Shown here: positions 1,759 to 51,762 of the stretch, piece after piece
How the letters are laid out: the number at the start of each line of letters is the position of its first letter
Numbering within the stretch: the first letter of the stretch is position 1
From: a virus
Direction: 5' to 3' (one strand)
Virus record (IMG/VR): IMGVR_UViG_3300002925_000021
Coordinates: 15,884 to 79,883 of that record
DNA length: 64,000 bases
Notes under the pieces: generated by a model
Seen by the model: the letters and a program-made list of their open reading frames with translations, nothing else
Databases searched by the model: none
What the model was told of the DNA's origin: nothing
Made by a program: the position numbers and the translations under genes

Positions 1759-1942
1759 CTAACGCAACAAGCACCGCCGTTTAGGACTGGGAAGGATTGC
1801 AGGGACGGCTACGCCTTCCTATAAACTGGGGAGAATGCCGTCTAGAAGGTGCTTAGAAGGCTTGCAAACCGGGGGATGGACATGGCACCGATGCTTGCCC
1901 CGAAAATGGCAAGGAGGAGCTCCTGGAGGCCATGAATGTAAA
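1759..1942 (+). mobile_element. ORF-less IS200/IS605-type mini element (long form, degenerate right end)
   Basis: TTGCC then LE-like hairpin caagcaccgccgtttaggactgggaagg, core ttgcagggacggc, ends tgaatgtaaa like the copy at 11345. Confidence 0.6.
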
Positions 1943-2084
1943 GGCTTTGACCAGCCTAAGGCGGATCCTCACAATTTCTTCTGTCCGATTAGAGGAAACA
2001 GAACAAGTCAACTTATTCTCCCAGCGACAAAGAAGGAAAGCGATTTTTGTTGCGCATTTCCCTTGGGGGACTTATCTCTAAAAA

Positions 2085-2705
2085 ATGAGCTATACGACCC
2101 TTCAAGAGAAATTGGCCAAACTCAAGAGTGGAGTTGAACTCCCCCTTGACATGTTGCGAGAAATCTCCGACAACGCTCCTTTTTCTTTATGGGATTTTTG
2201 CAAAGGAGTAAAGCGGCCCGATTTGCGGGAACAATTGCCCTTTGTTTCGGGGTTTAGATTTAAATTTTTCACTGAACTCCACAAGAAACAGGACGGTTCC
2301 TTTGACTTCGCCAATGCCAAAGCCATAGGAGAACTGGCGCTAAAGGACGGCACCATGTCTACCATTCGCTTTGGGCGATCAGACTTCTATCGACGGAATG
2401 CAACTGTTTTCGGTTATAAGAACAACTACTTCCCCCTCTTGAAAGTTGGGAAATTTGCTTATGTTGCCGAAGAAAGGATTTCGTTGTTGACAGAAGATGA
2501 ATTGATCATGGAGGGGATTAATGATCATCGGCAGAATTACCGTCAGATTCCAGAGGGGACACTTGTTATGGTGTTGAAGACGCTAATGTTCGACTCTATT
2601 CCCCTGGCGAAAGTGTTGCACGGGGAAGAAATTGGGTGGACATACGGAACGCTGTATGACAAGGACGCCTTTGATGCAGTTGACAACGAAAACCATTGGA
2701 TTTGA
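2085..2705 (+). CDS. Hypothetical protein
   Basis: 206 aa ORF co-oriented with its neighbours; no recognised motif. Confidence 0.65.
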   Translation: MSYTTLQEKLAKLKSGVELPLDMLREISDNAPFSLWDFCKGVKRPDLREQLPFVSGFRFKFFTELHKKQDGSFDFANAKAIGELALKDGTMSTIRFGRSDFYRRNATVFGYKNNYFPLLKVGKFAYVAEERISLLTEDELIMEGINDHRQNYRQIPEGTLVMVLKTLMFDSIPLAKVLHGEEIGWTYGTLYDKDAFDAVDNENHWI

Positions 2706-2708
2706 GAT

Positions 2709-3011
2709 ATGAGTAAAAACACCTGCAATCTATCCAATCTAAAGATGGGGAAATGGTACAAGGTTCAAGGTCAGAACTGTATGTTGACTCTATTCAAAGA
2801 ACCAAACTTGCATTCCAAAGTGATAGGGTTCTTGACAGAAAACCAAATATTCATGCTGATCCAGCATATAGAGAAACGCTCACCCGTCCACAACCGGAAC
2901 TGGGTCTTCCTGGGATCGGGAGAACAGTTTGGGTATGTCTGCTTTAGCATGCAGACGCAGTTCAAAGAGGTAGAACCAGGTGAAAACAGGGGGGTGGAAA
3001 GAAACGCTTGA
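2709..3011 (+). CDS. Hypothetical protein (possible SH3-like beta fold)
   Basis: 100 aa ORF starting 3 nt after the previous stop; beta-rich pattern. Confidence 0.6.
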   Translation: MSKNTCNLSNLKMGKWYKVQGQNCMLTLFKEPNLHSKVIGFLTENQIFMLIQHIEKRSPVHNRNWVFLGSGEQFGYVCFSMQTQFKEVEPGENRGVERNA

Positions 3012-3031
3012 GTGGTTGAAAGTAGTCTGAC

Positions 3032-3076
3032 CCTGTGCGCGGCAAGCCCATCCGTTCAGGCCGGGGAGAATGACAA
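3032..3076 (+). mobile_element. 45-nt IS200/IS605-type single-hairpin element
   Basis: CTGAC|cctgtgcgcggcaagcccatccgttcaggccggggagaatgacaa. Confidence 0.65.
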
Positions 3077-3134
3077 CGTTTAAGCCAATTTTGGGAACAC
3101 TCCAAGAAGCCTATCTATCTTGAGGAGTTCTCTC

Positions 3135-3740
3135 ATGACTGTGATCATGGCCCTCAAGCGCAACAATCAGGTTTGGCTTGGTTCGGATACGCGGATTACC
3201 GACGGAGACTATGGGATTGACTATGAGGTAAGGGAGAATTCCGATTGTTCTCTTGAGATGGACTCAAAGCTAGTCTTTCTTGATAATGCCATCATCGGGG
3301 TCTCTGGGGATCTGAAGATGCGAAACTACTTGGAATTGTTCGTCGCCAGGGGCAAAAATAAAAGTCTGCCATTTGATGGGAAACTTCATGTAGTGAAGTT
3401 TTTCATTTCATTCAAGAAGTTCCTCAGGAAAGAGGCTGAACTTGAGGATTCTGGCCACAACGAAGGGATGCAGTGGCTTGTGGCTACGCCAGAGAAAATC
3501 TTTACTGTTGACCAGGATGGAGCTGTCTTAGAATATCCTGTTATGTGCGTTATCGGAAGCGGTACTTATAGTGCAAGAGCTGTTTTGGAGTATATGCTGG
3601 AATATCAACCAAATCTCTCTGCTTCAAAAATGCTGGAAAGAGCCCACGAAGTGACCGTACGGCACAACCTAACTTGCGGCGGACGGCAATTCCAGATAAA
3701 CGTGACCAATTCCCTGAAACCGCTTGGAAATGAGTCCTAG
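3135..3740 (+). CDS. HslV/proteasome beta-subunit-like Ntn protease
   Basis: Starts M-T-V-I-M-A...GSDTRIT (N-terminal Thr nucleophile pattern); later IGSG. Confidence 0.75.
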   Translation: MTVIMALKRNNQVWLGSDTRITDGDYGIDYEVRENSDCSLEMDSKLVFLDNAIIGVSGDLKMRNYLELFVARGKNKSLPFDGKLHVVKFFISFKKFLRKEAELEDSGHNEGMQWLVATPEKIFTVDQDGAVLEYPVMCVIGSGTYSARAVLEYMLEYQPNLSASKMLERAHEVTVRHNLTCGGRQFQINVTNSLKPLGNES

Positions 3741-3940
3741 AAGACACTCATGCAATTGCCAACTTTATTCAATCGCGATGGCTCTGGTATAACACCTTAA
3801 ATTTGCCAACTCCATGTTGACAAGAAAGGATCACGGACCCACCTTGGTTGAAATGAACGCAGAATGTCGTTTTGAAGGACTCTAATAGCCTTCCTGTTGT
3901 CCTAAGAAAGACAAGGTTAGGTGGTTTTGAACAACTGGGA

Positions 3941-4456
3941 ATGATTATGAACATCAATGCGGTTAAGGCTGTCAGCTACGGTTCGATGAAGGAATACCTC
4001 AACGGCGTTCCTACTAGCAGTATTGCGGCTTTGGCCGTAATGTACGACAAAGTATGGATCATTTCCATTACAGGAGTAATTGATAGTTTGATAGCACTTC
4101 CCTTGATCAAGGACGGACCAGATCGGATTTCTCTTCAGTTCGATGATGTGGAAGATGAATACGATGACTTCGGACACGCCAAGCCTAGAGTTGAGTACTA
4201 CATCTACTTTGATGAAAAAATGGCTCGAAATATCTGTGAGTTCGTCAAGAGAACACACGAGAACGATCGAGAGAACAACGACCTTCTTGTGGTCAATTGC
4301 CACATGGGGATCTCTCGGAGTGGTGCTGTTTCTGATTTTGTACGGTCTGTATGTGGGATAGACTACAACCTTTGGAAAAGGATGAACCCTCAGTTGATTC
4401 CAAACCTTTTGGTTAAGAAACTCCTTCATTGTGCCTGGGAAGATCTTTGTTCTTGA
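3941..4456 (+). CDS. Protein-tyrosine/dual-specificity phosphatase-like protein
   Basis: CX5R loop VVNCHMGISRSGAV; upstream acidic FDDV loop. Confidence 0.8.
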   Translation: MIMNINAVKAVSYGSMKEYLNGVPTSSIAALAVMYDKVWIISITGVIDSLIALPLIKDGPDRISLQFDDVEDEYDDFGHAKPRVEYYIYFDEKMARNICEFVKRTHENDRENNDLLVVNCHMGISRSGAVSDFVRSVCGIDYNLWKRMNPQLIPNLLVKKLLHCAWEDLCS

Positions 4457-4471
4457 CATGTCAAAGGGGAA

Positions 4472-5296
4472 ATGGCTAAGTTCCATTGCATGAATGTAAC
4501 TGGAACTTCAGTCGCAGGGCTTGGAACTCGGATCTATCTCCCCGAGATTGATATTACATTTGACATGGGTTCCTGTTCTTCACAGGATGCGATTGGCACA
4601 AGTACCAATATGTTTATCACCCACGGGCACACGGATCACATTGGGCAAGCCGCCTATTTGAGATTTGCCAGAAAAATGATGGGAATGGCGCCACCCCATT
4701 TCTTTCTTCCAGAACACCTGGAAGACAGGTTCCGGGCCTTCATGGCTACTGCGGCTGCCATGGAAGAGAACTTTGACGATTCCCGGTCTTATAGTGTGAC
4801 CCCGGTGAAGCCAGGGCTGAAATACCAAGTGAAGCCTGGACTGTGGATTCAACCTCTTGCCTCGCCCCACTCCATTCCCATGTGTTCCTATGTGGTTTGG
4901 AAGGACCACAAGAAGCTCAAGTCGGAATATCTTGGGTTGTCTGGTTTGGAACTGGGCAATCTTCGAAGGCAAGGTTTCCAGATTGAAGATGTTATTTCTC
5001 AGCCTGTATTTGCTTATACAGGAGACACCACGGCCAAGGTTTATGACGTTCACCCGATTCTTCTTCAGGTTCAAACCCTTGCCATGGAAATTACATCCTT
5101 CCAGGATTACAAGGAAGAGGATACGGCAAGGTTTGGGCACACCCATATCAATGATGTGATTGCCATTACAGATAGGTTCGAGAACCAGGAAATTGTCTTG
5201 GTTCACCATTCTGCCAGGTATGATAGCCGAGACAAGGAAAAGGCTCACAAGTCTCTCCCAGTGGCTTTCCGCAAGAAGAACCACTGGCTGTCCTAG
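4472..5296 (+). CDS. Metallo-beta-lactamase fold hydrolase, RNase Z-like
   Basis: THGHTDH motif, later H, YTGDT, ME-x-T, GHTH and HHSARY motifs; KLKSEYLGLSG arm. Confidence 0.8.
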   Translation: MAKFHCMNVTGTSVAGLGTRIYLPEIDITFDMGSCSSQDAIGTSTNMFITHGHTDHIGQAAYLRFARKMMGMAPPHFFLPEHLEDRFRAFMATAAAMEENFDDSRSYSVTPVKPGLKYQVKPGLWIQPLASPHSIPMCSYVVWKDHKKLKSEYLGLSGLELGNLRRQGFQIEDVISQPVFAYTGDTTAKVYDVHPILLQVQTLAMEITSFQDYKEEDTARFGHTHINDVIAITDRFENQEIVLVHHSARYDSRDKEKAHKSLPVAFRKKNHWLS

Positions 5297-5297
5297 C

Positions 5298-5735
5298 TTA
5301 GGAAACCGGGTTGTTCCCGAAGTTCCCCACAACAATGAAGTGAGCACCCGTACTCTTTAGAATTACCGAAGATCCCACCGAACTAGCAAGTGTAATCTTG
5401 GCACCGGCAACCGAACCAGATACAATCACGACAGAACCAGTAGCTTCCAGGGAACTTGTTACAATGTGAGCCGCAGCCGAACCAACTCGGAACACAAACT
5501 CTGCTCCTGGACAGGATACGGCGGTTGGAAGAACTACCGTCTGTACACCAGAACCAGAGATCACATTCACGCCAGCCGAACCGGCAACAAGAGTGCTACT
5601 TCCAATGATTGGAACACTGTCAACAGGGAATGGCCCAAATCCCCGGTTTTCAGTATTGCGTTCAATAGAAATTCCAGTGCCATTGTTGGTGACCACTGGA
5701 CCTTGTACAGTGTCAATTCGAGTCTTGAGCGACAT
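5298..5735 (-). CDS. Hypothetical beta-rich protein, probably virion-associated
   Basis: G/S/V/T-rich 145 aa ORF with a TATTTA motif 29 nt upstream. Confidence 0.55.
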   Translation of the reverse strand: MSLKTRIDTVQGPVVTNNGTGISIERNTENRGFGPFPVDSVPIIGSSTLVAGSAGVNVISGSGVQTVVLPTAVSCPGAEFVFRVGSAAAHIVTSSLEATGSVVIVSGSVAGAKITLASSVGSSVILKSTGAHFIVVGNFGNNPVS

Positions 5736-6075
5736 GATGTTGATTCCCCCTTTAAGGCATTAATAAATAGAATAATCGGGATCAATCATTCTCCAAAAAT
5801 TCAAAGTATTTCAGGTGCGCTTGGAAGCTGTACAGCGCTTTGCCTTCAGGCGTTTACTTGGTGAACAGCACAAGCAAGGCGTCGACGTCGACGTTCTTTG
5901 CACATTGACGGTAAATGTTTGGTTTGCTTCTACAAAAGGAAACAGGCAGATATTGCGTACTCAGAAATGACAAACTCTATTGGGTTGGTCCGACCGTAAC
6001 CTTTGGGGATGATGGTATAAATGGCATCCTTGCGAACAGCAATGGCCATAGGACATCATTTCCTAATTAAACAAC

Positions 6076-6918
6076 ATGGACGAGAGCAATCTTTTGAAAG
6101 AGTACATCAATGCCATCCTGGATTCCAGGGAAGAGGACTTTCAGCAAATACAGGCGGCCAATGAGAGCTACGATGCCATCTTGAACTACATCAAGAAACT
6201 CAATAGGAATCCCAAGGCTTTCTCCAGTGTCTTCCAGACCAACGAACGAGGGTTCTTCACTGGTTTCGCCCTTGGGGCAAGGATAAGGCGCGAAGAACAC
6301 CTCCGGTTAGCCATATTCTTCATGGATCGGGAACTTGCAGGAGCCAAGAACAAAGTGAATGCACAGGCTATCCGCGTTCGAGTGCGGCCCATGAGCACCA
6401 CAGCAACGGCTATCAAAGGCTACCAAATTTGGATCTACTTTGATGCCCCAGCGGCGGTTAAAGTCAACGCAAAGACTTATAACAAGTGGCTAGCAGAAAA
6501 CCTGGAGACCCTGCTTGACAACGACAACACAAGATCGTCCTATGTCCACGAGTTCACTCACGTCCAGGATTTCAAGCGAATGAATCCACGATTTCTCCTT
6601 CAAAGAGGGTTGAAGAAGAAACAAGAGAAAGAAAAACAACAGCAAACTGGAAAGAAGTCAAGGGACTTTAATGCCTATGCTAATGACCCCTTGGAGTTGA
6701 ATGCATATTTTGCACAAGCCATGTCGGATGTTCAAAATCAGCTAAGAACCGCTAAAACCCCCGAGGAGAAAAAAGCTATTATCGGTTCAACCCCGCAGGA
6801 GTTTGCAGACAAGTTCATGAGTTTCTACCTCAAGAAGCAAGTGCGGAAAAACATTGATCCAGAAAACTGGAAAAGACTTGCCAGGAGAGCAGCTACATCT
6901 TGGGAACTGCTTCGGTAA
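6076..6918 (+). CDS. HExxH zinc metallopeptidase-like protein with N-terminal leader
   Basis: YVHEFTH plus downstream YANDPLELNAY; TAATTA at 6064. Confidence 0.7.
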   Translation: MDESNLLKEYINAILDSREEDFQQIQAANESYDAILNYIKKLNRNPKAFSSVFQTNERGFFTGFALGARIRREEHLRLAIFFMDRELAGAKNKVNAQAIRVRVRPMSTTATAIKGYQIWIYFDAPAAVKVNAKTYNKWLAENLETLLDNDNTRSSYVHEFTHVQDFKRMNPRFLLQRGLKKKQEKEKQQQTGKKSRDFNAYANDPLELNAYFAQAMSDVQNQLRTAKTPEEKKAIIGSTPQEFADKFMSFYLKKQVRKNIDPENWKRLARRAATSWELLR

Positions 6919-6929
6919 GCAGCTTTGAA

Positions 6930-6974
6930 CCGGTGCGCGGCGAGCCCCGTCGTTTAGGGCGGGGAAGAAGTAAA
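6930..6974 (+). mobile_element. 45-nt IS200/IS605-type single-hairpin element
   Basis: TTGAA|ccggtgcgcggcgagccccgtcgtttagggcggggaagaagtaaa. Confidence 0.7.
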
Positions 6975-7042
6975 TTCTCCAAACAATGATCTGGATGTAG
7001 AAACGGTTAATAAGTTATAACTCTAAATAAGATTTAGAAAAC

Positions 7043-7710
7043 ATGAAGAATTCTGATCTTTCTGTTCTAATCCGTGAGGCTGTTCTGGCTGGCATTAAGG
7101 AAGCAAATTACCCCGAGGGGTTCAATGTGGAAGAATTTAAGTCTCTTCCGACGTTTGCAGCCAGAATGAAGTACGTCAAAGCCCGACTCCCCAAGGTTGC
7201 TCAGGGAAGCGCAAGAACCGCCTTTATCGTTGATGATGCTACTGTCCTAAAGGTGGCCATGAACAAAAAAGGATAGCTCAGAACGGCATTGAAGCTGATA
7301 TAGGACGGTATTCAGACCGTTATCCAGTTGCCAAGGTTTTTGATGTGGGAGATGAGGGCGCTTGGATTGAAATGGAGAGGGCCACCAAGGCGACGCCTAA
7401 ACTCTTCAAGCAATTGGCAGGGGTAGACATAAATACTTTTGAATTGGTTATTATTGGGTACTACTACGATTCGAATTTGAGGAGTGGAAAGGGAATTATG
7501 CAAAAGCCGCCTGGCTATGATGACTTGGCATCCGGCGACAATGAGTTCATCAATAGTGTATTAGATCTAATTGTTGATTACGACATGCTTTATGGTGATA
7601 TCAGCCGGATCTCTTCGTGGGGTGTCGTCAATTGAAATGGACAACAGAAGTTGGTATTGATTGACTTTGGTCTTACCAGAACAGTCTGGGATGACTTCTA
7701 TGCCAGGTAA
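7043..7710 (+). pseudogene. Protein-kinase-like fold paralog, disrupted
   Basis: Collinear with 50171-50863 and 54143-54853. A 1-nt deletion at 7271-7272 (KKG|IAQN) and an in-frame TGA at 7633 precede LVLIDFG. Confidence 0.75.
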
Positions 7711-8070
7711 ACTCTTGAAGATAGTGTTCCCAATGATTTCCGATTCCAAGACCGTTGAAAGCTGAATCCCAGAAGCGCTGAGAATTGCTTACTCCTATTA
7801 TCCCACAAAAAGGAAAAGGGCAGTTTTAGGTGATGCCCAGCACCCTTCGAGAAGTCAAGAGTCCCACAGATGGGAGATTGTCCTACTGGAAACACAGGTC
7901 GGAGTTTCTCGGTATGCACACCTAGACTGTTGAGATTTGTAGCCTAAGATTGAGAACAAGATCTGTACCCCGACAGATAATTCCTAATTGCGGGGGTGAT
8001 TACCGCACTCTCAACTTTTCCAAGTCCTTAACAGCCCTGTTTGCATCTATTATAGAGAATGTCTTCTGAA

Positions 8071-8589
8071 TTATTCAAAATAAACAGGGTCCAAGTCTTC
8101 AATCTCAATCTCTGTCTGATTGCCGCGATTGATGGCAGCCCGAAGAGACTCAGCGTAGCCTGTAGCTTTTACAGCCAGTTCTACCGCTTCCTTATGCGAA
8201 ACGGTCCGAACAGACGATATTTCGTCAACAGAACGAGTTCTAGGACCGCGTAGGATGGGAGTGTCCATGGAAGCTTTCCTCCAAAGTGCTTCTATTCGAC
8301 CGGCTCCACCAACACGCTTTACAGCTTCGGTGAGTGTCATTACGCGACCCTGTGGGCCTGAACCAACCTTCACAGTTACGGCAAGGTTATAGCGGGCCTG
8401 CGCTACCTGAAGGCGGGCAATAGCATCTTCTGCCCGGTTCATCTCTGCCACAAGTTCCTGTGGCTTAGACACTTCCTTCTCACGTCCTGGAAAGACATGA
8501 AGAGAACTGTCAAATTGCTTGTGGGCTGATTCCAGCCGCAAGCCCCAACGACGAAGGGCATCACGCAACATAGCACCGGTTACTTTCAT
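8071..8589 (-). CDS. Hypothetical coiled-coil protein (loosely DIP1984-like)
   Basis: 172 aa helical ORF with GAGG RBS; family resemblance from memory only. Confidence 0.6.
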   Translation of the reverse strand: MKVTGAMLRDALRRWGLRLESAHKQFDSSLHVFPGREKEVSKPQELVAEMNRAEDAIARLQVAQARYNLAVTVKVGSGPQGRVMTLTEAVKRVGGAGRIEALWRKASMDTPILRGPRTRSVDEISSVRTVSHKEAVELAVKATGYAESLRAAINRGNQTEIEIEDLDPVYFE

Positions 8590-8815
8590 ATGAACCTCTC
8601 AATGTTCGATTTGATCGGACATTCTGGAAGAAGACCTTTTCATACAAAAGCATCACCTGGAGAGGAGTTACACTATACGGTTCCATCCGTAAACACTCCA
8701 AGCAAGCCATCCATTCTGCAAACTTCAACCAGTGATTCTTTTAGTCTACTGAAATGGCGAAGTCTAAAGCCTTATGTCTAACAGTTTATCCGACATGGAC
8801 TAGACCCCAATACGT

Positions 8816-9007
8816 CTAAGCGTCAATTTTACCAGTTTTTATCTGTTTTAACCATTTCTTGAAGGTAGACTCACTGATCCCAAGGTAGTCCCATAGAGAT
8901 GACCCTTCGCCGTTCTCCAGCCATTCCTTCACAAGTTCTTCCATGTCCCTGTAATAGAACTTATCAGGATCCAAAACGGTAGAACTGGAAAGAGAAGTAA
9001 TTATCAT
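8816..9007 (-). CDS. Small hypothetical protein
   Basis: MIITSLSS...LWDYLGISESTFKKW, the part of the track ORF downstream of the tRNA. Confidence 0.5.
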   Translation of the reverse strand: MIITSLSSSTVLDPDKFYYRDMEELVKEWLENGEGSSLWDYLGISESTFKKWLKQIKTGKIDA

Positions 9008-9043
9008 GTTTAAGGCTGGTGTTGAACCTAAATCGGTGGCTAG

Positions 9044-9132
9044 CGGAAGAGGGGAGACTCGAACTCCCATAGGCTTTCTGGGCCTAACCTCAATTTTCAA
9101 GACTGGTGCAATAACCGTTCTGCCACTCTTCC
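9044..9132 (-). tRNA. tRNA-Ser (anticodon TGA), CCA not encoded
   Basis: Acceptor GGAAGAG/CTCTTCC, G73, D-arm GTGGCAGAACGG, loop CTTGAAA, long variable arm taggc/gccta, T-arm GGGAGTTCGAGTCTCCC; one anticodon-stem mismatch. Confidence 0.9.
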
Positions 9133-9216
9133 GGGGCAAATAATAACTATGTGATTCAAAACAGTTCTTTGCCAAGTTTGGGACGTTCAACCCTGAACCA
9201 GGGCTAGCTTTTTCGG

Positions 9217-10002
9217 TTACGAACTTGAACCTTTTTTCTTTATGGATGGGGTAGAAACTGCTATGCTTGCAGCGACACACCTCTCATTGGCTTTTTCGGC
9301 ATCAGTCTGGTTTCTCTCGGACCCTAGGAACCTTCTGCCAAGCTTCAGAGCGGCGACCCCTGTTGTTCCCCAGCCTACAAAGCAATCAACAACCAAATCC
9401 CCTGGGTTACTGTGAGTATTGATAAGCCGTTCCAAGAGTTCCACTGGCTTTTGGGCATTTCTCTCTGGCCTCATAAGCTCCGGGATATCCGTCCAGACAT
9501 TGCTAACCCGTTTGTATTCGCTTTTTGCCGGGTATTTTGAGTTAAATCCTTCGTACCCTCGCTTGATGTTTGTCAAGGGGATATTGAAGGTTACCTTGGT
9601 CCTCTCTGGAGACATAGAGTACCACGCAATCTCCTCACGGCAGAAGAGATAATCATGGTTCTTTCCGTAGGCTCTCCTCTTGGCCCAGGTGATAAGGTTG
9701 CGATAGTGATAGAGGTTGTTATCCTCAATCTTGTGGAGAAGAGAAAAAAAAGGCCTTTCACCGTGCTTGCCAATTCCCCCAAAGAAGATAATAGAACCAT
9801 TCTCCTTCATCTTAGGCTTTACAGCCTCAAGGAGCCGGTACATCCAGTCAACATATTCCTTGACTGTCTTCCATTGGTTGTCCCAGGAGTCTTCTAGAAT
9901 CCCCATATACGGTGGGTCTGTCAGAAACAAATCAACAGAACCGTCCTGAAGGGAATTGACAAAATCAAAACAGTCTTCTGCAGTTACAAATTTTATGGTC
10001 AT
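9217..10002 (-). CDS. N4-C/N6-A DNA methyltransferase (beta class)
   Basis: DPPY precedes the SAM motif VVDCFVGWGTTG; start placed at MTIKF. Confidence 0.9.
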   Translation of the reverse strand: MTIKFVTAEDCFDFVNSLQDGSVDLFLTDPPYMGILEDSWDNQWKTVKEYVDWMYRLLEAVKPKMKENGSIIFFGGIGKHGERPFFSLLHKIEDNNLYHYRNLITWAKRRAYGKNHDYLFCREEIAWYSMSPERTKVTFNIPLTNIKRGYEGFNSKYPAKSEYKRVSNVWTDIPELMRPERNAQKPVELLERLINTHSNPGDLVVDCFVGWGTTGVAALKLGRRFLGSERNQTDAEKANERCVAASIAVSTPSIKKKGSSS

Positions 10003-10104
10003 TCTGTACTCATTTGTCTGTACCGTTGCTGCTACTACGCCTAGATCCACATTGACAGGCAGACAGTACGATGTATATAGATAATCCAGTCGTACGGAGA
10101 TAAA

Positions 10105-10290
10105 ATGGAGATCAAAATTCAATACTGGGGTCTGATCGAGGTTGTCACGTTGCGCAAAGGCCGCCCCTGCTACCGGTGGGTGCCCGGTTACGTTGTTGTC
10201 GTTAATGGGCGAACCTGGGTACCGCCGCTGCGACGACGGGATGCCTACGCGTTAGTACGTAATCTCCGCGACGAACTCAAGCGTTCTTGA
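10105..10290 (+). CDS. Small hypothetical protein, GC-rich
   Basis: 61 aa ORF with GGAG upstream; visibly higher GC than its flanks. Confidence 0.45.
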   Translation: MEIKIQYWGLIEVVTLRKGRPCYRWVPGYVVVVNGRTWVPPLRRRDAYALVRNLRDELKRS

Positions 10291-10794
10291 CATCCCCAGC
10301 CAAAACTGGAACACCTTCCCCGGTACTCAACCAGTTAATATAAACGAACTCAGAAGAATTATATACAATTCTCGAGTTCTCGATCATTAGAACGTTTAAC
10401 AACAACTGGACAATCAGTTGCCGTTTGCCTCTTGGACTTCCGTAAAACCCTTATAGAGCTTCAAGTCAATAGATACGGCCAGAAGGTCGTCCTGAATCTC
10501 CAAACGCTTTCTGGAGGCTTTTAGAGCGTCCTAGAGGGTGTTCTAGGAAGGTTCTGAAATATTGACTGTAGCCCAGAACGCCACTGGAATCACCGGCCTG
10601 AAGACTTGGGAAGAAGTAAATTTTGTGGTTTCTCATGTACCGCGCGGCAGCGATCCGCTGCGGCACGTCCCAGAGGGCGAACTCAGGCCTCTTTGAACAA
10701 TCGAGGCAGTTGAACGATGCCGGGTTGACTGTCGGAGAACTCCTGGTTAGATGAAAGGTATTTTCAGGAGAAGAAGAAAAGGATAAAGAAACCA

Positions 10795-11325
10795 ATGGAC
10801 ATCAACATAAACACCAACGAGAACATTCGTGATTGGGTTCTGGAACAGACGGATGCCCGGAATGTGCTTCGATCGATCACAAAGCAGTCTCTCCGGCTGG
10901 GGGTGTTTCTTGCTTGCAAGGTGGCGCGAGAGGCCCTTCGGTTCTTGCCCGAGGGCGAGGGAAGACCACTCCAGGCGATCGAGGCCGCAGAACGATGGGT
11001 TCGCGGCGCGGCGACGGATGAGGAGTGCGAACGCACTGCCACCGCCGCCTTCGCCGCAGCCAACGCTGCCTCTACAACCGCATATGCAGCCGCATCCTAC
11101 GCTGCCTTCGCCGCCTCCTACGCTGCCTTCGCCCACACCTACGAAGCCGCCGCCAACTACGCTGCCTTCGCCGCTTCAGACGCTGCTAACGCCGCAGCCA
11201 ACGCCGTAGCCGACGCCAACACCCCCGTTTGGAAGAAGGTTCGCAGTGAAGAACTCCGACGCCTCTGCAGTGTGATCGCAAACGATATGTTCACGGGCCG
11301 GACCGCTGAAGTCCTGAAGGCCTAA
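10795..11325 (+). CDS. Imm5-like helical protein with Ala-rich repeat
   Basis: FLACKVAREAL...RPLQAIEAAERWVRG followed by AAFAA/AAYAA/AANAA repeats. Confidence 0.7.
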   Translation: MDININTNENIRDWVLEQTDARNVLRSITKQSLRLGVFLACKVAREALRFLPEGEGRPLQAIEAAERWVRGAATDEECERTATAAFAAANAASTTAYAAASYAAFAASYAAFAHTYEAAANYAAFAASDAANAAANAVADANTPVWKKVRSEELRRLCSVIANDMFTGRTAEVLKA

Positions 11326-11344
11326 AAGGCTAAGCCGGGTTGCC

Positions 11345-11564
11345 ATGGGGTGCGGCAAGTCCTGCCGTTTAGGACTGGGCAGAATAGCCATGACGGCGCT
11401 GCCTTCCTCGAATACTTCTGCCGCCTCGAACGAGGCGGACCGGAAGTAACGCCAGCGGTGATACGAACAACCATTGGGCACTCGGCCAAGGAAACCGCAG
11501 AAGCGACTCAGGGCAATGTTGAACCGCCCAGGAACGATGGCCTTTGGGCCGGGGTGAATGTAAT
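11345..11564 (+). mobile_element. ORF-less IS200/IS605-type mini element (long form, 220 nt)
   Basis: TTGCC|LE hairpin ggcaagtcctgccgtttaggactgggc; core gaatacttctgccgcct..aggcgg shared with 51599-51762; RE ggcctttgggccggggtgaatgtaat. Confidence 0.75.
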
Positions 11565-11687
11565 TTGCGATGTTCTTCCAAGAGGTATAATGGCAGGGGT
11601 GGTTAGGATTCTAGGGTGGACCAGGGGTCCAAGTGTTTCAGGGTTGAAGTGCAAAAGCACTGAAAATAACTTGGAATGGCCCAATTC

Positions 11688-12038
11688 CTAATGATTCTGG
11701 CCGGTAGTTTCATCATTCTTCTTGGAAGGGTTTCTTCTCTTGGGGGGAGATAGTTCGACAGGTTCTTCAACGACTTCCACTTCGGTTGGTTCTCCAGTGA
11801 ACGGCTGGGAATTTTGAATAGTCTCAAAGTTTACAGTGGGAAGAGCTTCGCCACGTTGAATCAGTTCCGGGTCAAGGAAGAACTCCCCTGCCTTTTCGAT
11901 TCGAGAACGAACAGCCTGGAATTCTTCTTTGAATCTAATGCCCTCTTGTTCGCACCAGCGTTCAAAAGATACTCTTCGGCGGGTTAAAAGGTGCAAAAGG
12001 GAAGTGGGGCCTGTGTTTGCTCTGCCGTCATGGTTCAT
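11688..12038 (-). CDS. Hypothetical protein
   Basis: ORF from MNHDG, overlaps the stop of the previous gene. Confidence 0.6.
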   Translation of the reverse strand: MNHDGRANTGPTSLLHLLTRRRVSFERWCEQEGIRFKEEFQAVRSRIEKAGEFFLDPELIQRGEALPTVNFETIQNSQPFTGEPTEVEVVEEPVELSPPKRRNPSKKNDETTGQNH

Positions 12039-12333
12039 TGCGCTTTTCCTTCTCAATTTCGCTATAAGCTTCAAAGAGCACATCAGAAAGAGCTTCGTGG
12101 ACCTGTTGGTCCTTGAGAATTTTATTAACTTGTTCCTCGTTGATCAAGGCACCTAATTCCTCTGAAACGTTTCTAAATAGACGGCCAAGGGAATTCAGGA
12201 AAACATTGCGCGCGGTAGCATGGTTCATCTGGTAGCCAGCAGCAGACATGATCTTGGCAATTTTTCGGAAGTCTGTGCCTTCTTCGAGTGTTACGTACTT
12301 GTTAGCCCCTTTGTCATCAGGTCTATTAGCCAT
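12028..12333 (-). CDS. HTH protein resembling sigma region 4.2
   Basis: GTDFRKIAKIMSAAGYQMNHATARNVFLNSLGRL; ATG overlaps the sigma gene stop (ATGGCTAA). Confidence 0.6.
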   Translation of the reverse strand: MANRPDDKGANKYVTLEEGTDFRKIAKIMSAAGYQMNHATARNVFLNSLGRLFRNVSEELGALINEEQVNKILKDQQVHEALSDVLFEAYSEIEKEKRNEP

Positions 12334-13141
12334 TGAGTTCTTCTCCAGTTTTGACAGCCGGAACAGTCTGAATAACATCATAACGAAGAAAGATGATATT
12401 TCTTTCCCTTGCTGAGAGTTTCAGCAAAGCTCTCTTCACAACCTCCACCAAGGTGCGATAATCTGACAGGGTATCACTACCGTCTGATTCGTCTACAAGC
12501 AATTCCTTAATGGTTAGGCCGGTAGAATTGCCTTTGTTTTGTTGTGCTGGGACCACTGTCTCCATAGAAGAAATCCACCTGGACTTGAGAGAGTGGTTGA
12601 TGCTATTTAGCATTTTCTCAGAAACCCCAAACTTAGAAGCATTACCTTCGGACAAATCCTCGAAACTGAGTTTCTTCTCCTTCATGGTCTTCAGAAGCTT
12701 GTTCTGGGCTGTTCGAATGTGAGACGGTACATGAAGTTGTGGATCCACGGAAAGCAAGTAACTGTTAATTGCGTGACGGATCCACCAAGTGGCGTAGGTG
12801 CTGAACTTAAAACCTCGATGAGGATCGAACTTCTCAACAGCCGACAACAGACCGAAAGATCCCTCTTGGAGAAGATCTTCTCGTATCTGTTGATGTTCCT
12901 TCTTCTTCGAATAGAACTTGTTCACCACAAAGGTCACCAATTTACAGTTTCTATTGGCAAGAATATTTCGTAACTCTTTGTCCTGTTTCACCAGTTTCCC
13001 CTTTTCATCCATTTCTTTTGTATGGAAATACTGGTAGAAGAGCTTCATATCCTCATCACGATCATCAAGGTTCTTTGACAAAGCACTAGCTTCCGCTGGT
13101 GTTATCGCTAGTGTCACTGCTTGATGTTGTTGTTTTCCCAT
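12326..13141 (-). CDS. Sigma70-family RNA polymerase sigma factor lacking region 4.2
   Basis: Region 2: EDLLQEG..GLL.AVEKFDPHRGFKFSTYATWWIRHAI; ends shortly after the region 4.1 start LSARERNIIFLRY. Confidence 0.9.
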   Translation of the reverse strand: MGKQQHQAVTLAITPAEASALSKNLDDRDEDMKLFYQYFHTKEMDEKGKLVKQDKELRNILANRNCKLVTFVVNKFYSKKKEHQQIREDLLQEGSFGLLSAVEKFDPHRGFKFSTYATWWIRHAINSYLLSVDPQLHVPSHIRTAQNKLLKTMKEKKLSFEDLSEGNASKFGVSEKMLNSINHSLKSRWISSMETVVPAQQNKGNSTGLTIKELLVDESDGSDTLSDYRTLVEVVKRALLKLSARERNIIFLRYDVIQTVPAVKTGEELNG

Positions 13142-13598
13142 ACTTACTTTCCCTGCCCTTTCGAGATTTTACCGCCCAGTTCATGTAGGTCGCAAGGCAC
13201 TCTGCCCGGATCTTCTCGAACTTGATCTTGTTTATCCTGAGACCCAGGCTCTTAGCTATCTTCTTCCCCACTTCCCAGGCTTCGATCTCCTCTTGTACCT
13301 TAGCAATCTTGTATGTGACCGTCGCATACCTCAAAGGACTCCGAACCAACTCTGGATACCTGTCTTGATAAGTGACATCACACTCTAACATCCAAGCATG
13401 GCCGATTTCATGCAAAAAGACGTAATAGAGAATTTCAAGCTTTCGTTTTGCGAACAGGGTTACCACCTTATTGTGGTAACGGCTATTCTTCTTGTTTGAA
13501 AACACTACCGTCCAAGAATGCCGAGAACAAAATTCGATCAACCTATCAATGTTCTCCTGAACTTCCTCTCGATCAAGTTCAACATGGAAGAATGACAT
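13086..13598 (-). CDS. HExxH metallopeptidase-like (ImmA/IrrE-like) protein
   Basis: FLHEIGHA and downstream EEIEAW. Confidence 0.7.
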   Translation of the reverse strand: MSFFHVELDREEVQENIDRLIEFCSRHSWTVVFSNKKNSRYHNKVVTLFAKRKLEILYYVFLHEIGHAWMLECDVTYQDRYPELVRSPLRYATVTYKIAKVQEEIEAWEVGKKIAKSLGLRINKIKFEKIRAECLATYMNWAVKSRKGRESKYGKTTTSSSDTSDNTSGS

Positions 13599-13909
13599 GC
13601 GAATGACCTCAAACCCTGCAAACCCTATGACCTAAACGGATAGGAATAACTTACCATACGCAAATTGTCAATTGAACCAAGTTCCACCCCGAAAGCTGTA
13701 CCCTTACCCCTAATATTCCCTTCAAACTTAACACACTTCTCTATCATCCCCTTTTTCAAGTTATTACTACCACACAGGTGAATTCCACTCATTCTCACCC
13801 ACATTCCCGCTAACCAACAATACCATTTCGAAACTTCTATCTTTTTTATTTCTTTCTACCCCCTTTCTTTTCTCTTATATCTTACCTCTTAACTCTTAAA
13901 CTTTAACAT

Positions 13910-13967
13910 TAACCTTATCTCTTAACCTTATCTCTTAACCTTATCTCTTAACCTTAACCTTATCTCT
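13910..13967 (+). repeat. 13-bp tandem repeat (TAACCTTATCTCT x3, partial copy, x1) in a pyrimidine-rich non-coding tract
   Basis: Copies at 13910, 13923, 13936 and 13955 within ~500 nt of non-coding DNA between divergent gene blocks. Confidence 0.9.
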
Positions 13968-14112
13968 CTTTTTCCCTCCCTTTCTTGGTAGTGTTCCACC
14001 ACTGGGGTAGAAACCAGTTCCTCAGTTAAAAAGTTGGGTTTTCTTCTAAAGAAGGTTCCTATACATCATTCCCGCAAAACCCACATAATTCTAATCGAAA
14101 GTAGGTTACATC

Positions 14113-14397
14113 GTGGGTAGAAAACGAACAGAAGAAGAGACAGGTGTTGACAGGATGCCTTCTAGCATCACGGAACTTGAACCAGTGATCAAGGAATTCG
14201 TAGAAAAGCTAAGGACAATTAAGACCGAGCAGGAAATTCTCAAGCAAGACGAGAGGGAATTGATTGAGGAGTACAGCGCGAAGCTCGACATGAAGACTTT
14301 GAAGGCTGCCATGAAGGTGGTAGCGGTCCGAGAAAAGGTGGACCGCAAGGACACCTTTGACACATTGGTGGAAGTCCTGGAGAGGATTGGAGAGTGA
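14113..14397 (+). CDS. Small dsDNA-binding protein (GapR/T4 DsbA-like)
   Basis: Helical pattern IKEFVEKL..IK.E...LK.D..ELIEEY...LD.K.LK. Confidence 0.55.
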   Translation: MGRKRTEEETGVDRMPSSITELEPVIKEFVEKLRTIKTEQEILKQDERELIEEYSAKLDMKTLKAAMKVVAVREKVDRKDTFDTLVEVLERIGE

Positions 14398-14398
14398 A

Positions 14399-14791
14399 AT
14401 GGCCTCTTTGCATGAGAAGTACGAAATTCCAGAGATTCTGTATGATGAACCCATGCCGGGGCAGCAACCCAATCCTTTCCCGTTTATCAACGTGAAGAAG
14501 GAGGGGAAGATGCCGCCCGTGCTTTTCATTGAAGAAAGGAAGAACACGGGGGAAATTGAACCAGGTTCCGATGGACGTCCGCAAGAGATTGTGGACTGTT
14601 TGATGCACAAGTACGTAGACCTGGAGGTATTGAAGGAGAAGCTGCCGCCCCACTTGAATGACATTGTACGAGTTGCGTTAGGGATGAAGCCTCTTAGGGA
14701 AGCGCAAGAATCCGGTCAAGCGATCTTGGACAAAGCACGTAAAAACGTTGAGAAGATACTGGAAACAAAGAAAACAAAAAAGGGCAAGTGA
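14399..14791 (+). CDS. Hypothetical protein
   Basis: ORF from MASLHEK, tightly packed operon. Confidence 0.65.
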   Translation: MASLHEKYEIPEILYDEPMPGQQPNPFPFINVKKEGKMPPVLFIEERKNTGEIEPGSDGRPQEIVDCLMHKYVDLEVLKEKLPPHLNDIVRVALGMKPLREAQESGQAILDKARKNVEKILETKKTKKGK

Positions 14792-14794
14792 CAC

Positions 14795-14998
14795 ATGCGT
14801 TTACACATTTCGGTTGTTAACAAACTTCTTGAATTGGTACAGAATTACGGTGGTCATGAACATGACCACAAGCTTCGGGCAAAATTCACTGAATTGGATC
14901 TAACCCCATACGAACGGCAGAGCACTCAAAACCAAGAAGTAATCTTGGTGCTTACAGAGGATTACGTGAAACAACTCTCCGGTAACGCTGGGAGATGA
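14795..14998 (+). CDS. Hypothetical protein
   Basis: 67 aa ORF filling the operon gap. Confidence 0.55.
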   Translation: MRLHISVVNKLLELVQNYGGHEHDHKLRAKFTELDLTPYERQSTQNQEVILVLTEDYVKQLSGNAGR

Positions 14999-15004
14999 TG
15001 ACAA

Positions 15005-15658
15005 ATGGCAGCACAACAACAGACCCATTTCAATATCGGACAGATTATCTATATTCTGTCCAACAAGTCCCAGTCTGTTGTTCCGGCCATTGTAGCAGAA
15101 GAGGATTTTCGGAAGGTTAGAAAGCTGGATGGAGTTCACGAGGTTGTGAACTATAAGCTTTGCATTGGTCCTAAGGAACGGCAGAAAGTTGTTAGCCTTT
15201 CTCAGATTGATGGGGAGGTATATACGTCTCTCGAAGACATTAGGGTGCATTTGATGCAAAGGCTTACTGCTTTTGTGGATGATTTGGTCAATACCACCAT
15301 TGGTAATACGCAGAAGTGGTATGGTGTGACAGCTAACAACCAAGTCCTGGAGGCTGTCCCAGGCGAAGCTGGTTCGGGGGTCAAATTGGATCCTGGCGAC
15401 ATCATCCATGCAGTGAACAATGACATTCCACTTCCCAACGGACAACAACATCCCCTTCAGCTTAATGGTGGGGCACAGTCCCCGCAACCGCAAGGACTAA
15501 ACCCCCATGCGTCTATGCGTGACAATATCCGAGCTATGGTAACGCCAGAAGAAAAAGAAGATGAAGACCCAATGCAGGGACTTGCCTTGAACCAAGGCAC
15601 ACAACAGCAATACGTGATTTTGCCCGATGGAACGAGGGCAGCTCTACGACAAGGATAA
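15005..15658 (+). CDS. Hypothetical protein
   Basis: 217 aa ORF immediately before groEL. Confidence 0.7.
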   Translation: MAAQQQTHFNIGQIIYILSNKSQSVVPAIVAEEDFRKVRKLDGVHEVVNYKLCIGPKERQKVVSLSQIDGEVYTSLEDIRVHLMQRLTAFVDDLVNTTIGNTQKWYGVTANNQVLEAVPGEAGSGVKLDPGDIIHAVNNDIPLPNGQQHPLQLNGGAQSPQPQGLNPHASMRDNIRAMVTPEEKEDEDPMQGLALNQGTQQQYVILPDGTRAALRQG

Positions 15659-15659
15659 C

Positions 15660-39758: not shown

Positions 39759-40046
39759 TTATCCAACGTACTTAGAACAATCCTTCAAGTCTGGCACCTT
39801 GATGATTGTACCTACTGGAACCTGTAATCCCCAACCAATGTCACTAGCAGCTGCTATCAGCCACCAAAGTCTCCCATCTCCGTAGAACTGCCCAGCTAGA
39901 ATATCCAAACGGTTGGATTCTTGAAGGACAATTTCCTGGAACCGAATGTTGCCGTCCCTGATGTTTTGGCGGATTGCAGGGACGGCAAAAGAAGTGCCAT
40001 ATCTGTAACCTAAGCCAATAACCGGTGTTCTACCGTATCTCTTCAT
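39759..40046 (-). CDS. LysM-like baseplate/tail X protein
   Basis: RLDILAGQFYGDGRLWWLIA.....G..IKVP. Confidence 0.8.
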   Translation of the reverse strand: MKRYGRTPVIGLGYRYGTSFAVPAIRQNIRDGNIRFQEIVLQESNRLDILAGQFYGDGRLWWLIAAASDIGWGLQVPVGTIIKVPDLKDCSKYVG

Positions 40047-49492: not shown

Positions 49493-49493
49493 T

Positions 49494-50033
49494 ATGCCTT
49501 TCATCAAACTTGCTCAGAAGGTTTTCAAACTCATTAACCCCTCTGGATACCACAAACGGATTGCTGTCAAACTGTTTGAACTTCCAAACGGGTTGAAGGA
49601 AACATTCTTTGTTGACCAGGACAGTGATTCAGTGCAAGTTCTGTGCATCACGAAGGATGCACAGCCAGACGTAATTCTGGTCCAGCAATTTCGAACAGGG
49701 CCAGAACAGGTGCAGTTGGAACTACCAGGGGGCGCTATTAATCCTGGAGAGGAGCCATTGCATGCAGGCATAAGGGAGTTGAGGGAGGAGACAGGATACG
49801 TTGGAGATGCAACCTATATGGGTAGCCTCCCTTATTCCCCTTACTCCAACGGAAGAAGGCATTGTGTTCTGGTGATCAACGCGGAACAGGTTGATACCCA
49901 ACGCCTGGACCCAAATGAGTTCGTGACGCTTCTGAAGATGCCTTTAAGGGACTTCCGTCTAAAGATAAAGAACGGTAGTATCCGTGGGTTTGACTTCGGA
50001 TATATGTCCCTAGATTACCTAGGCAAACTATAG
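49494..50033 (+). CDS. Nudix hydrolase (ADP-ribose pyrophosphatase-like)
   Basis: QFR...ELPGG.....E.....G.RELREETG Nudix box. Confidence 0.92.
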   Translation: MPFIKLAQKVFKLINPSGYHKRIAVKLFELPNGLKETFFVDQDSDSVQVLCITKDAQPDVILVQQFRTGPEQVQLELPGGAINPGEEPLHAGIRELREETGYVGDATYMGSLPYSPYSNGRRHCVLVINAEQVDTQRLDPNEFVTLLKMPLRDFRLKIKNGSIRGFDFGYMSLDYLGKL

Positions 50034-50170
50034 CCTAACCACCAGTCGCAACCGACTCTGTAATGCTTGGGAACTCTGCAACTGCAATCTTCTCCTCTGA
50101 CGGCGAGGGGTGAGTTGCCGAACTGGGAATTCATGGTTCAGACTTGATGGTTACGGCCATATCGGAAGTT

Positions 50171-50863
50171 CTAACTGTAGTAGTGCTTCATGTAGATGCT
50201 TTTGCTTAGCCCATAATCGATCAGAACAAGCCTTCCGTCCTTTGTGATGCCCCACGATGAAACCTTGGCAAAATCACCTGGAAGCATGTCGCATTCTTTC
50301 ATTATTTGAATCAACATTTTGACAAATGGGTTCTGGAGCATCTGTTCGTAACCTGGTGGTTCAAACTGCCGATGTCTTGCACTTTGCATGTTTTCGGCAT
50401 ACCAATAGGTTAGAACAGCTCGTAGCTTCCCGACATCTAGACCTGTCTGTTGTTTGAAGGCGGTATCCGAAGCAAGGAGTTTAGCCCGTTCCATCACAAT
50501 CCAATCGTAATTCGGACTTGCTTTGAATATCTTGGCAAATACCCCCTTGATGCTGGTGCAGTCTTTAACCCTTGCTTCCATCTCGTTCTGTTCTCTACCG
50601 GCTTCATTAACAGCCAGTTTCAAGACCATGGTACTGTTAAGCAGAAAGACCGTCCTAGCCGTACCTTCTCCCAGAAGCTTCAAGCCCTGAGCATGACAAT
50701 ATGCCAGACGTTCTTCGTACGTTGGTAGGCTGGAAAGTATTCCCAAAGAGAAGGTTGGTGTCTTTGCCGTGGAATTCCTTGCCACTGTCTTTCGAAGACT
50801 CCTAGTGTCTTCCCGAACCATGGAACGTATGAACAAAGGTAGTCGATTCTTATAGATGGACAT
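50171..50863 (-). CDS. Protein-kinase-like fold protein
   Basis: GEGTARTV, VLK, QN..E, VMERA, GD....SWG, LIDYG. Confidence 0.7.
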   Translation of the reverse strand: MSIYKNRLPLFIRSMVREDTRSLRKTVARNSTAKTPTFSLGILSSLPTYEERLAYCHAQGLKLLGEGTARTVFLLNSTMVLKLAVNEAGREQNEMEARVKDCTSIKGVFAKIFKASPNYDWIVMERAKLLASDTAFKQQTGLDVGKLRAVLTYWYAENMQSARHRQFEPPGYEQMLQNPFVKMLIQIMKECDMLPGDFAKVSSWGITKDGRLVLIDYGLSKSIYMKHYYS

Positions 50864-50876
50864 GTTATTCCAAGCT

Positions 50877-51551
50877 TTACTTCGGAATAGCCTGAAGTCC
50901 TTCGTTGAGCATTTCGATGTTCTTTTTCAGAACATCTTCGGCCAACTTTTCAATAAACGACTGAGCAGGGTAGCTATAACCCTCAAAAGTGAAATGGCGT
51001 TCTGCCCTTGGCAGAGCACCATTCTTTAGAGCTTTGTTTTGCTTGGAACGGAATTCTGAATAGGCTTGCGCAATGGTCATAGGGTTGAATTCCCCAAGGT
51101 CCAACGTTTCTCCGTTCTTGAAGAACAACTTAACCGTCCCGCCAGTTTCAGGTCCGGCATATACCACAGCATCTTGGTCAAATCTTTTACCTAAGTCCGT
51201 AGCTGTCTTCTGGTTAATCTTGAAGACCATCAAAGACGGTTCAATGCTGTCCTTCAACTGTTCTGGTGGACACTTATCGTAATCCACATTCGGGTCTTGA
51301 CACTCCTGCCAATGGCCACGAAGCTGGATGTAACCAAGACCATTCGATCGCACAAAATTTTTGAGAGCTGAAAAGTTCGTCAGATTCGTATTTTTATCGT
51401 TCGCTTGACGCCAAGAAGTCAGAATGGCAAATCCCTCATCCTTGGCCTTTTGAACGTGCGACATGATACGACTCAAAGAACTTTCAAAAAGCTTTGCCTT
51501 TTCTCTCTTTAACTGTGCTTCAAGGATTTCTCTAAGATTGTCAATGGTCAT
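50877..51551 (-). CDS. Conserved phage protein with leader (DUF3293-like)
   Basis: SSLSR..., FAILTSWR, G.G.I...G.W.E, E.S..V, F.QDAV. Confidence 0.6.
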   Translation of the reverse strand: MTIDNLREILEAQLKREKAKLFESSLSRIMSHVQKAKDEGFAILTSWRQANDKNTNLTNFSALKNFVRSNGLGYIQLRGHWQECQDPNVDYDKCPPEQLKDSIEPSLMVFKINQKTATDLGKRFDQDAVVYAGPETGGTVKLFFKNGETLDLGEFNPMTIAQAYSEFRSKQNKALKNGALPRAERHFTFEGYSYPAQSFIEKLAEDVLKKNIEMLNEGLQAIPK

Positions 51552-51598
51552 ATCTTTAAATACTCCGTGTTCAAACGATAATTGCAGGGAATCTAATT

Positions 51599-51762
51599 TT
51601 GATATCCTCCCCGGCCTGAAGACCGTAGGTTCCTACGGAACTAAGGCAGCCTGTCCGACCATAGGCCGCCTCAGATTCTAGGCGGCTGAAGTATTCTAGG
51701 ACGTCTACGCCTTCCGCGCAACCCCCTCCTTTCAATAAACGGCGAGGATTTCCCAGCACCGG
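51599..51762 (-). mobile_element. ORF-less IS200/IS605-type mini element (long form, 164 nt)
   Basis: TTGAC|ccggtgctgggaaatcctcgccgttta...ttgcgcggaaggcg...gaatacttcagccgcct...ggaacctacggtcttcaggccggggaggatatcaa. Confidence 0.8.

Follow-up and report, generated by a model that had tools for sequence, protein, structure and literature searches.

Mostly decayed, gene-less repeats on a large phage contig as probable PATEs of an IS605-group transposon

A stretch of 64,000 nucleotides (nt) from the IMG/VR viral record IMGVR_UViG_3300002925_000021, which we call the window, carries short dispersed repeats that resemble the ends of IS200/IS605 transposons. We conclude, with a probability of about 0.8, that these repeats are palindrome-associated transposable elements (PATEs) of an IS605-group IS200/IS605 element, that they are gene-less, and that most of them are inert and decayed relics. 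The window spans bases 15884-79883 of a 102,884-bp contig with a CheckV completeness of ~28%. The contig encodes a chaperonin, ribonucleotide reductase, a DnaB-like helicase, RecA and a long tail-sheath protein, and therefore belongs to a large myovirus-type phage. Among isolated phages, its sheath protein comes closest to that of Microcystis phage Mel-JY01, but an identity of 32% is too low for a host to be named, and megablast of 20 kb against isolated phages gave no match. We compared this 103-kb source contig (G000) with its two nearest relatives, G001 (82.6 kb) and G002 (55 kb), which are 76% and 66% identical to it, respectively, in the one flanking protein compared for each.

The sequence-only reading of the window had described five related elements. 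All five were found in place and on the strands reported, directly after the pentamers TTGCC, TTGCC, CTGAC, TTGAA and TTGAC, with shared internal blocks and right ends of the ...GGATGTCAA type (Table 1). An nhmmer profile built from these copies matched a sixth long copy outside the window (E 6e-19), confirming that they are related. The five-member family is real but larger than had been proposed: the same profile recovered a 5'-truncated copy and four mini forms, for a total of 11 copies on the contig, of which seven are long or truncated and four are mini forms of 45-46 nt. Three of the mini forms lie in the window, and three copies lie outside it. Profile E-values range from 1e-19 to 1e-38 within the contig and from 1e-9 to 1e-15 in other viral contigs, and the core motif counts were above those of all 100 shuffles. 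The 11 copies follow TTGAC (two), CTGAC (two), GTGAC (one), TTGAT (two), TTGAA (two) and TTGCC (two). Open reading frames (ORFs) inside the 45-219-nt elements are chance or fusion frames only, and no protein-coding gene was found in them.

To trace descent, we followed both ends of the repeats into full-length elements. In an IMG/VR scan, the right-end motif GGGAGGATGTCAA was found directly 3' of tnpB genes in nine other viral contigs, and these genes carry a CxxC zinc ribbon and a DRDxNAAxNI motif upstream of it. Scanning with the left-end motif led to two further loci, L126, which consists of a left end (LE), an opposite-strand tnpA, a tnpB of 429 amino acids (aa) and a right end (RE), and L135, which has LE, tnpB and RE; ORF-less forms of the same architecture occur in other viral contigs (L106 and L054/L101). 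The TnpB proteins of L126 and L135 have more than 400 relatives in species-representative genomes. The best 80 of these come mostly from Beta- and Gammaproteobacteria, with some from Verrucomicrobia, Nitrospira, Chloroflexota and Alicyclobacillus. The full-length family combines the Y1 transposase gene tnpA with a TnpB of ~400-430 aa, inserts 3' of YTGAC and ends in GGAGGATGTCAA; the target pentamers of 52 full-length relatives were TTGAC (26), CTGAC (17), ATGAC (4), TTGAT (2), GTGAC (2) and TTAAC (1).

Positions 1-70 of the copy profile correspond to the LE of L126, of L135 and of most of 80 full-length genomic loci. The match lies ~450-520 nt upstream of tnpB where tnpA stands between the two, and ~100 nt upstream where tnpA is missing; against the LEs of elements with both tnpA and tnpB, the profile gave E-values of 1e-9 to 1e-16. 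Profile positions ~91-164 correspond to the last ~75 nt before the RE end at the same loci, where they overlap the 3' end of tnpB. Both ends are thus homologous to full-length elements and the target matches, which argues that the repeats are PATEs, non-autonomous deletion derivatives of an IS605-group element. The IS200/IS605 derivation proposed from the letters alone therefore stands, with the left 70 nt as LE, the right ~45-75 nt as tnpB 3' end plus RE, and a fitting insertion motif. It also makes sense of the peptide TYGLQAGEDI, which had been noticed as a TnpB-type tail in the copy at 51599. In about a third of the relatives examined (L151-L230), the tnpB frame enters the RE hairpin and either ends at the TAG of a CTTTAGG loop or, with a TTCAGG loop, continues through ...GLQAGEDV; this read-through accounts for the translation of c51599.

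Table 1 Copies of the repeat and associated features, with scores against the repeat profile (nhmmer) and the RNA covariance model R1. Coordinates are those of the window unless another record is named.
Feature	Position	Strand	Preceding pentamer	nhmmer (bits)	R1	Description
PATE c1759	1759-1941	+	TTGCC (1754-1758)	104.6	no match	183 nt; ends GAATGTAA
-10-like box of c1759	1820-1825	+				TATAAA; TTGCAG 17 nt upstream
Mini form	3032-3076	+	CTGAC			45 nt; LE arm fused directly to RE tail
Mini form	6930-6974	+	TTGAA			45 nt; sole copy folding canonical hairpin (6 bp)
PATE c11345	11345-11563	+	TTGCC	127.6	18.2 bits, E 0.004, at 11453-11564	219 nt, class B; RE ending GAATGTAA; GGAAaCCgCaGAAGCG kept, stem 2 lost
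Mini form	17976-18021	+	TTGAT			46 nt; target TGA is the stop codon of gene 17450-17974
PATE c20055	20055-20196	-	CTGAC	109.8	16.2 bits, RE-proximal part only	142 nt, class A
-10-like box of c20055	20126-20131	-				TAGAAT; TTGCGC 16 nt upstream
PATE c21069	21069-21218	-	TTGAA	128.5	13.2 bits	150 nt, class A; inside gene
-10-like box of c21069	21150-21155	-				TATAAT; TTGCGC 17 nt upstream
DUF1599-like gene remnant	21219-21281	-				First 21 codons; LE of c21069 directly after
Dihydrofolate reductase (DHFR) remnant	21317-21502	-				61-aa ORF, C-terminal part, residues 92-152 of the 163-aa L145 protein; gene intact in G001 and G002
PATE c51599	51599-51762	-	TTGAC	125.2	29.7 bits, E 2.6e-6; confident over last ~50 nt only	164 nt, class A; ends GGAGGATATCAA
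-10-like box of c51599	51693-51698	-				TAGAAT; TTGCGC 17 nt upstream
Mini form outside window	G000:C1 13003-13047					Target includes stop codon
Truncated copy g86618 outside window	G000:C1 86610-86681					Between divergent genes
Long copy g100869 outside window	G000:C1 100874-101089				63.3 bits, full model	Same architecture as L054 and c11345
PATE L106, other viral contig					88.5 bits	
PATE L054, other viral contig					81.3 bits	

The copies fall into three deletion classes. Class B comprises LE, a tnpB promoter-like box, an omega-RNA region and RE; class A (c20055, c21069 and c51599) has the same layout with the central scaffold deleted; and the mini class of 45-46 nt consists of an LE arm and an RE tail around one hairpin. 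In c11345 the order is LE, second LE hairpin, TCGAAT box, small 5' hairpin, a partly kept omega-RNA region and RE. The most diverged of the long copies, c1759, is too diverged to place in the joint alignment. A 15-mer identical to its core (GATTGCAGGGACGGC) lies in a coding region at window 39951-39986 (+) and is paired there, as an inverted repeat, with GCCGTCCCTG located 16 nt upstream; this is probably a chance match. The GGGTTGCGCGG LE variant of the phage copies was not seen in IMG/VR outside the source contig, and of the 30 loci returned when viral contigs were scanned for the phage-specific LE variant GGGTTGCGCGKAMGGC, the profile recognized none as a family member.

The region that combines the 3' end of tnpB with the RE is where TnpB omega RNAs lie. 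Alignment A5 covers the 3'-terminal 128 nt of 50 distinct full-length elements, and the covariance model R1 was built from it. The consensus fold has 26 pairs, 17 of them with changes on both sides; 95.2% of the cells are paired, compared with 40-57% when partners were slid, and 0 of 500 shuffles reached the observed values. It runs from stem 1 through a conserved single strand (CAGGAACCCACCGAAGCG), stem 2, GTAGGAATC and the RE hairpin to GGAGGATGTCAA. By homology, then, the region has the layout of an omega RNA: it lies on the tnpB strand and overlaps the RE, and its guide would be the DNA just past the RE. The family fold covaries, but the window copies match it poorly or not at all. Whereas the intact PATEs of other viral contigs score 81-88 bits, four of the five window copies reach 13-30 bits and the fifth none.

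Joint alignment accounts for these low scores. Both c11345 and g100869 show the complete layout seen in L054, with LE, box, small 5' hairpin, scaffold and RE. Three of the five window copies have lost the central conserved GGAACCCACCGAAGCG motif together with stem 2, and this part is damaged in c11345. The scaffold content of the window is therefore at best one damaged scaffold, that of c11345, together with RE-proximal stubs. At most one or two copies on the contig, g100869 and perhaps c11345, could give an omega-RNA-like transcript. Pair counts on a model-fitted alignment of the phage copies (A7) were set aside, as this alignment is biased towards the model and contains 38% gap cells and two rows that are probably false hits. 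We note that Rfam HgcC (RF00062) gave sub-threshold matches to the tnpB 3' end/RE region in L106:1134-1251 and L135:1437-1537 only, at 21-23 bits against a gathering score of 50, and that the archaeal HgcC family may itself be a TnpB guide RNA. At the gathering score, Rfam found only a tRNA in the whole window, and at E<=1 it gave no match around c11345.

These results bear on the proposal that the repeats are working stand-alone omega-RNA units. A transcript of scaffold and ~16-20 nt of right-flank guide, arising by read-through or from the element's own promoter, would be loaded on a TnpB or TldR supplied in trans, which would cleave element-free alleles in co-infecting phages or regulate genes. 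The concept is accepted for Geobacillus PATEs (PMC10055086) and the family fold covaries strongly; the omega-RNA strand agrees with the upstream gene for every copy that has one, every long copy has a -10-like box preceding its RNA region, and g100869 reaches its score over the full model. We nonetheless consider the proposal unlikely, and for the window copies it is not supported, given their R1 scores, the deletion or damage of GGAACCCACCGAAGCG and stem 2, the erosion of the RE hairpins, and a terminal GTAA in place of TCAA in two copies. Nor was a partner found nearby. The sequence-only reading had reported no TnpA or TnpB in the window, and searches with PF01797, PF07282, PF01385 and the family TnpB protein extended this to the whole 103-kb contig. 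PF07282 was also blank in five related or PATE-bearing viral records (G001, G002 and three others), including one complete 274-kb genome, and no RAYT transposase was found on the contig by PF01797, the one profile with which RAYT was sought. Searches with the 16-nt right flanks at <=3 mismatches gave scattered matches in G000, G001 and G002, and none was adjacent to a TGAC-type transposon-associated motif (TAM). The guide proposed for c21069 has a further difficulty, described below, in that its right flank is not the original target.

The ends of the phage copies have decayed in structure as well as in sequence. When folded as single-stranded DNA, the reference hairpins of L126 gave -11.2 kcal/mol (LE) and -8.5 kcal/mol (RE), and the RE hairpin of the full-length family shows covariation. 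Folding of the phage copies is no stronger than that of shuffles, and the canonical register is lost except for the 6 bp in the mini form at 6930-6974. The left hairpin attributed to the five original copies survives as a sequence remnant, but none of them forms, as single-stranded DNA, the canonical 7-bp left-end hairpin of the full-length relatives, and the subterminal hairpins that TnpA would bind are eroded in almost every phage copy. We read this erosion as decay after insertion and not as evidence against descent. Pairwise identity among the copies is 65-82%, and their G+C content is 53-67%, compared with 47% for the contig and 64% for intact PATEs. Eroded hairpins, mutated TCAA ends, limited identity and intermediate G+C together point to old insertions that are decaying in place. 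Inert transposon scars, the outcome that the sequence-only reading had set against its own proposal, are a fitting description of most copies.

Two of the blocks shared by the copies had been taken for guide-RNA scaffold, and here the comparison with relatives leads to a different assignment. The block TTGCGCGGACGGC is the 5' half of the second LE hairpin (GGACGGCGTAGCCGTCC in relatives, where loci differ by G/C swaps), and GAATACTTC is the end of a TATAAT or TAGAAT box; by homology, both belong to the left end and not to the RNA scaffold. In the tnpA-less full-length elements L160 and L202, the homologous box lies directly after the second LE hairpin and 30-45 nt before the tnpB ATG. It is probably the -10 element of a tnpB promoter, which we infer from this position in the tnpA-less relatives.

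Such a box could also have been put to new use. Relics may have been co-opted as small regulatory modules, serving the next co-oriented gene as a TTGCGC-N16-17-TAKAAT promoter or as hairpins that stabilize RNA ends. None of the seven long or truncated copies has lost its -10-like box, although the TnpA hairpins have decayed; a co-oriented ORF follows six of them at a distance of 19-143 nt, and the box precedes the tnpB start in L160 and L202 as described. A simple sigma-70 consensus scan, however, called none of the TTGCGC-N17-TATAAT sites, and the -35 candidate TTGCGC matches the consensus at 3 of 6 positions. The mini forms, which lack the box, are found in similar positions, the nearest relatives do without any copy, and seven short boxes are too few for showing selection. 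We regard co-option as quite improbable.

Apart from c21069, which sits inside a gene, every copy is intergenic or at a gene end; the earlier statement that every element stands just downstream of a stop codon needs correction for c21069, which does not follow a natural one. The LE-to-RE direction matches that of the upstream gene wherever one exists, including all five of these copies as had been noted, and g86618 matches the downstream gene. The target contains TGA, and in the mini forms at 17976 and 13003 the stop codon is part of it. At the other sites, the gene-end positions need no explanation beyond selection against gene disruption. Gene direction, GC skew and element direction switch together near 34-35 kb of the contig, so co-orientation is inseparable from a replication-strand bias.

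A DUF1599-like gene is broken by c21069 after its 21st codon, and the stop codon of the remnant falls within the element. The gene is intact in G002 (130 aa, L145:6605-6997) and in G001; codons 19-22 read ...CTTGTTGAC ACC.... In a tblastn search of G000, the DUF1599-like protein matched over residues 1-21 only, at 81% identity, and the rest was found nowhere on the contig, and homology to both G001 and G002 ends exactly at the LE of c21069. The element split the gene, and a deletion then removed the sequence beyond it. Since the gene is deleted beyond c21069, the DNA now on its right is not the original target, and this weakens the case for the guide proposed for this copy. The uninterrupted gene in L145 has GTTGAC at the c21069 site, although the relatives are too diverged for empty sites to be called at base level.

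Neither G001 nor G002 holds any copy, and the invasion was therefore specific to the lineage of the source phage. Relative to G001, the contig has the same block order with two blocks inverted (window coordinates 14107-19810 and 21389-81605). In this comparison, which concerns window 1734-14107 and 19810-21389, a 12-kb stretch is absent from G001. Copies stand at or within ~250 nt of three block ends, namely c1759, c20055 and c21069, the last exactly at one of them. The copy c1759 begins 8 nt past the stop codon of the gene at 1053-1751, at the end of a synteny block common to G001. We considered recombination between c21069 and g100869 as the event that inverted one block (A), and rejected it as the 3' part of the DUF1599-like gene is neither beside g100869 nor elsewhere on the contig. 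A tRNA-Ser gene (anticodon tga) with a long variable arm lies at window 9043-9132 (-), within the 12-kb stretch absent from G001.

Our account of these insertions as decayed PATEs runs as follows. A TnpA supplied in trans, by the host or by the unsequenced part of the phage, would have placed the copies at TGAC-like sites in phage DNA while this was single-stranded. Insertions would have persisted only where they fell at the end of a gene or within a dispensable one, and the copies that remain have since decayed. Several observations weigh against this account. No tnpA or tnpB was found on the contig, which represents ~28% of the estimated genome, and the mobilizing enzyme is one that we infer. 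Precise empty sites could not be demonstrated, because the flanking proteins are only ~66-76% identical and the intergenic DNA cannot be aligned: L137 carries both genes that flank c51599, without the element, and when the 51599 and 17976 sites were aligned with L137 and G001, the intergenic DNA proved too diverged to be informative. A metagenome scan with a 261-aa neighbour protein returned one short, distant contig and no closer relative. The -10-like box persists in 7/7 long or truncated copies despite the decay of the hairpins, and g100869 keeps the single-stranded omega-RNA motifs and stem 2 (63 bits); the retained box and these RNA motifs could reflect some selection for transcription or for RNA function.

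A more active role is conceivable for the few better-kept copies, g100869 and perhaps c11345. These would be promoter-plus-omega-RNA cassettes that borrow a host TnpB and cut element-free co-infecting relatives at TTGAC plus right flank, and so would act as a gene-less homing drive. If this were true, the element and the neighbouring phage genes would be copied into co-infecting genomes or would outcompete them. We hold this to be a long shot. Chance similarity, or a phage-specific repeat unrelated to transposons, has the low pairwise identity of some copies in its favour and nothing more, and is refuted by the profile matches within the contig (1e-19 to 1e-38), in other viral contigs and to the LEs of tnpA-tnpB elements. 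The shuffles also speak against it, and its probability is close to nil.

Read as mostly decayed PATEs, the repeats record that a large environmental phage lineage was invaded repeatedly: 11 copies are found in 103 kb, compared with none in the two nearest relatives, and most are decaying. They also bear on phage genome plasticity, as one copy is the exact truncation point of a gene and another lies <=30 nt from a synteny breakpoint. For annotation, G+C-rich intergenic blocks of this kind should not be labelled as novel RNAs, terminators or guide arrays.

Variation within the wider family was also observed. The RE hairpin loop of L154, L160, L211 and L221-L223 carries an extra nested hairpin insertion of ~25-40 nt. 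An intact 46-nt single-hairpin mini element is present in Ralstonia phage Eline (NC_054957.1, L243:1506-1551), where TTGAC is followed by an LE arm, a 7-bp hairpin and GGATGTCAA; it lies between tRNA-Ser(tga) and ssb, and BLAST gives a second place in the same record.

ISDra2 TnpB uses a TTGAT TAM and an omega RNA that overlaps the RE. ISDra2 and IS608 resemble the phage family in a pentamer target of the TTGAT type and an RE ending in TCAA, and the guide RNA would be formed by scaffold plus right flank; the family described here is defined by its own LE and RE. Closer are the full-length IS605-group elements L126, L135 and L151-L230, with which the phage copies have in common an LE with a second hairpin, the YTGAC target, the order GTAGGAATC, hairpin and GGAGGATGTCAA, and the same strand logic; unlike these, the phage copies are without tnpA and tnpB, carry the GGGTTGCGCGG LE variant and have decayed hairpins. 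REP elements and REPtrons are single hairpins mobilized by the RAYT Y1 transposase. The mini forms resemble REPs as single-hairpin units at gene ends, but differ in their IS605-type 5' arm, their ...GATGTCAA tail and the TGAC-like motifs that precede them.

The nearest known counterparts are PATEs themselves, ORF-less IS200/IS605 derivatives described in Haloquadratum walsbyi (PMC3119063), and the PATE-like elements of Geobacillus stearothermophilus, the omega RNAs of which are used in trans by TnpB (Meers et al. 2023, PMC10055086). As in those organisms, the phage copies have no ORF, keep LE and RE and follow a fixed short insertion motif; the described PATEs rely on TnpA and TnpB acting in trans, and in many of them the omega-RNA region is retained. 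The idea of in-trans omega RNAs for PATEs is already published (PMC10055086), and our analysis adds no new mechanism to it. What distinguishes the phage copies from the described PATEs is their setting on a large phage contig with no cognate tnpA or tnpB, their strong erosion, and their three deletion classes, which include a 45-nt single-hairpin form.

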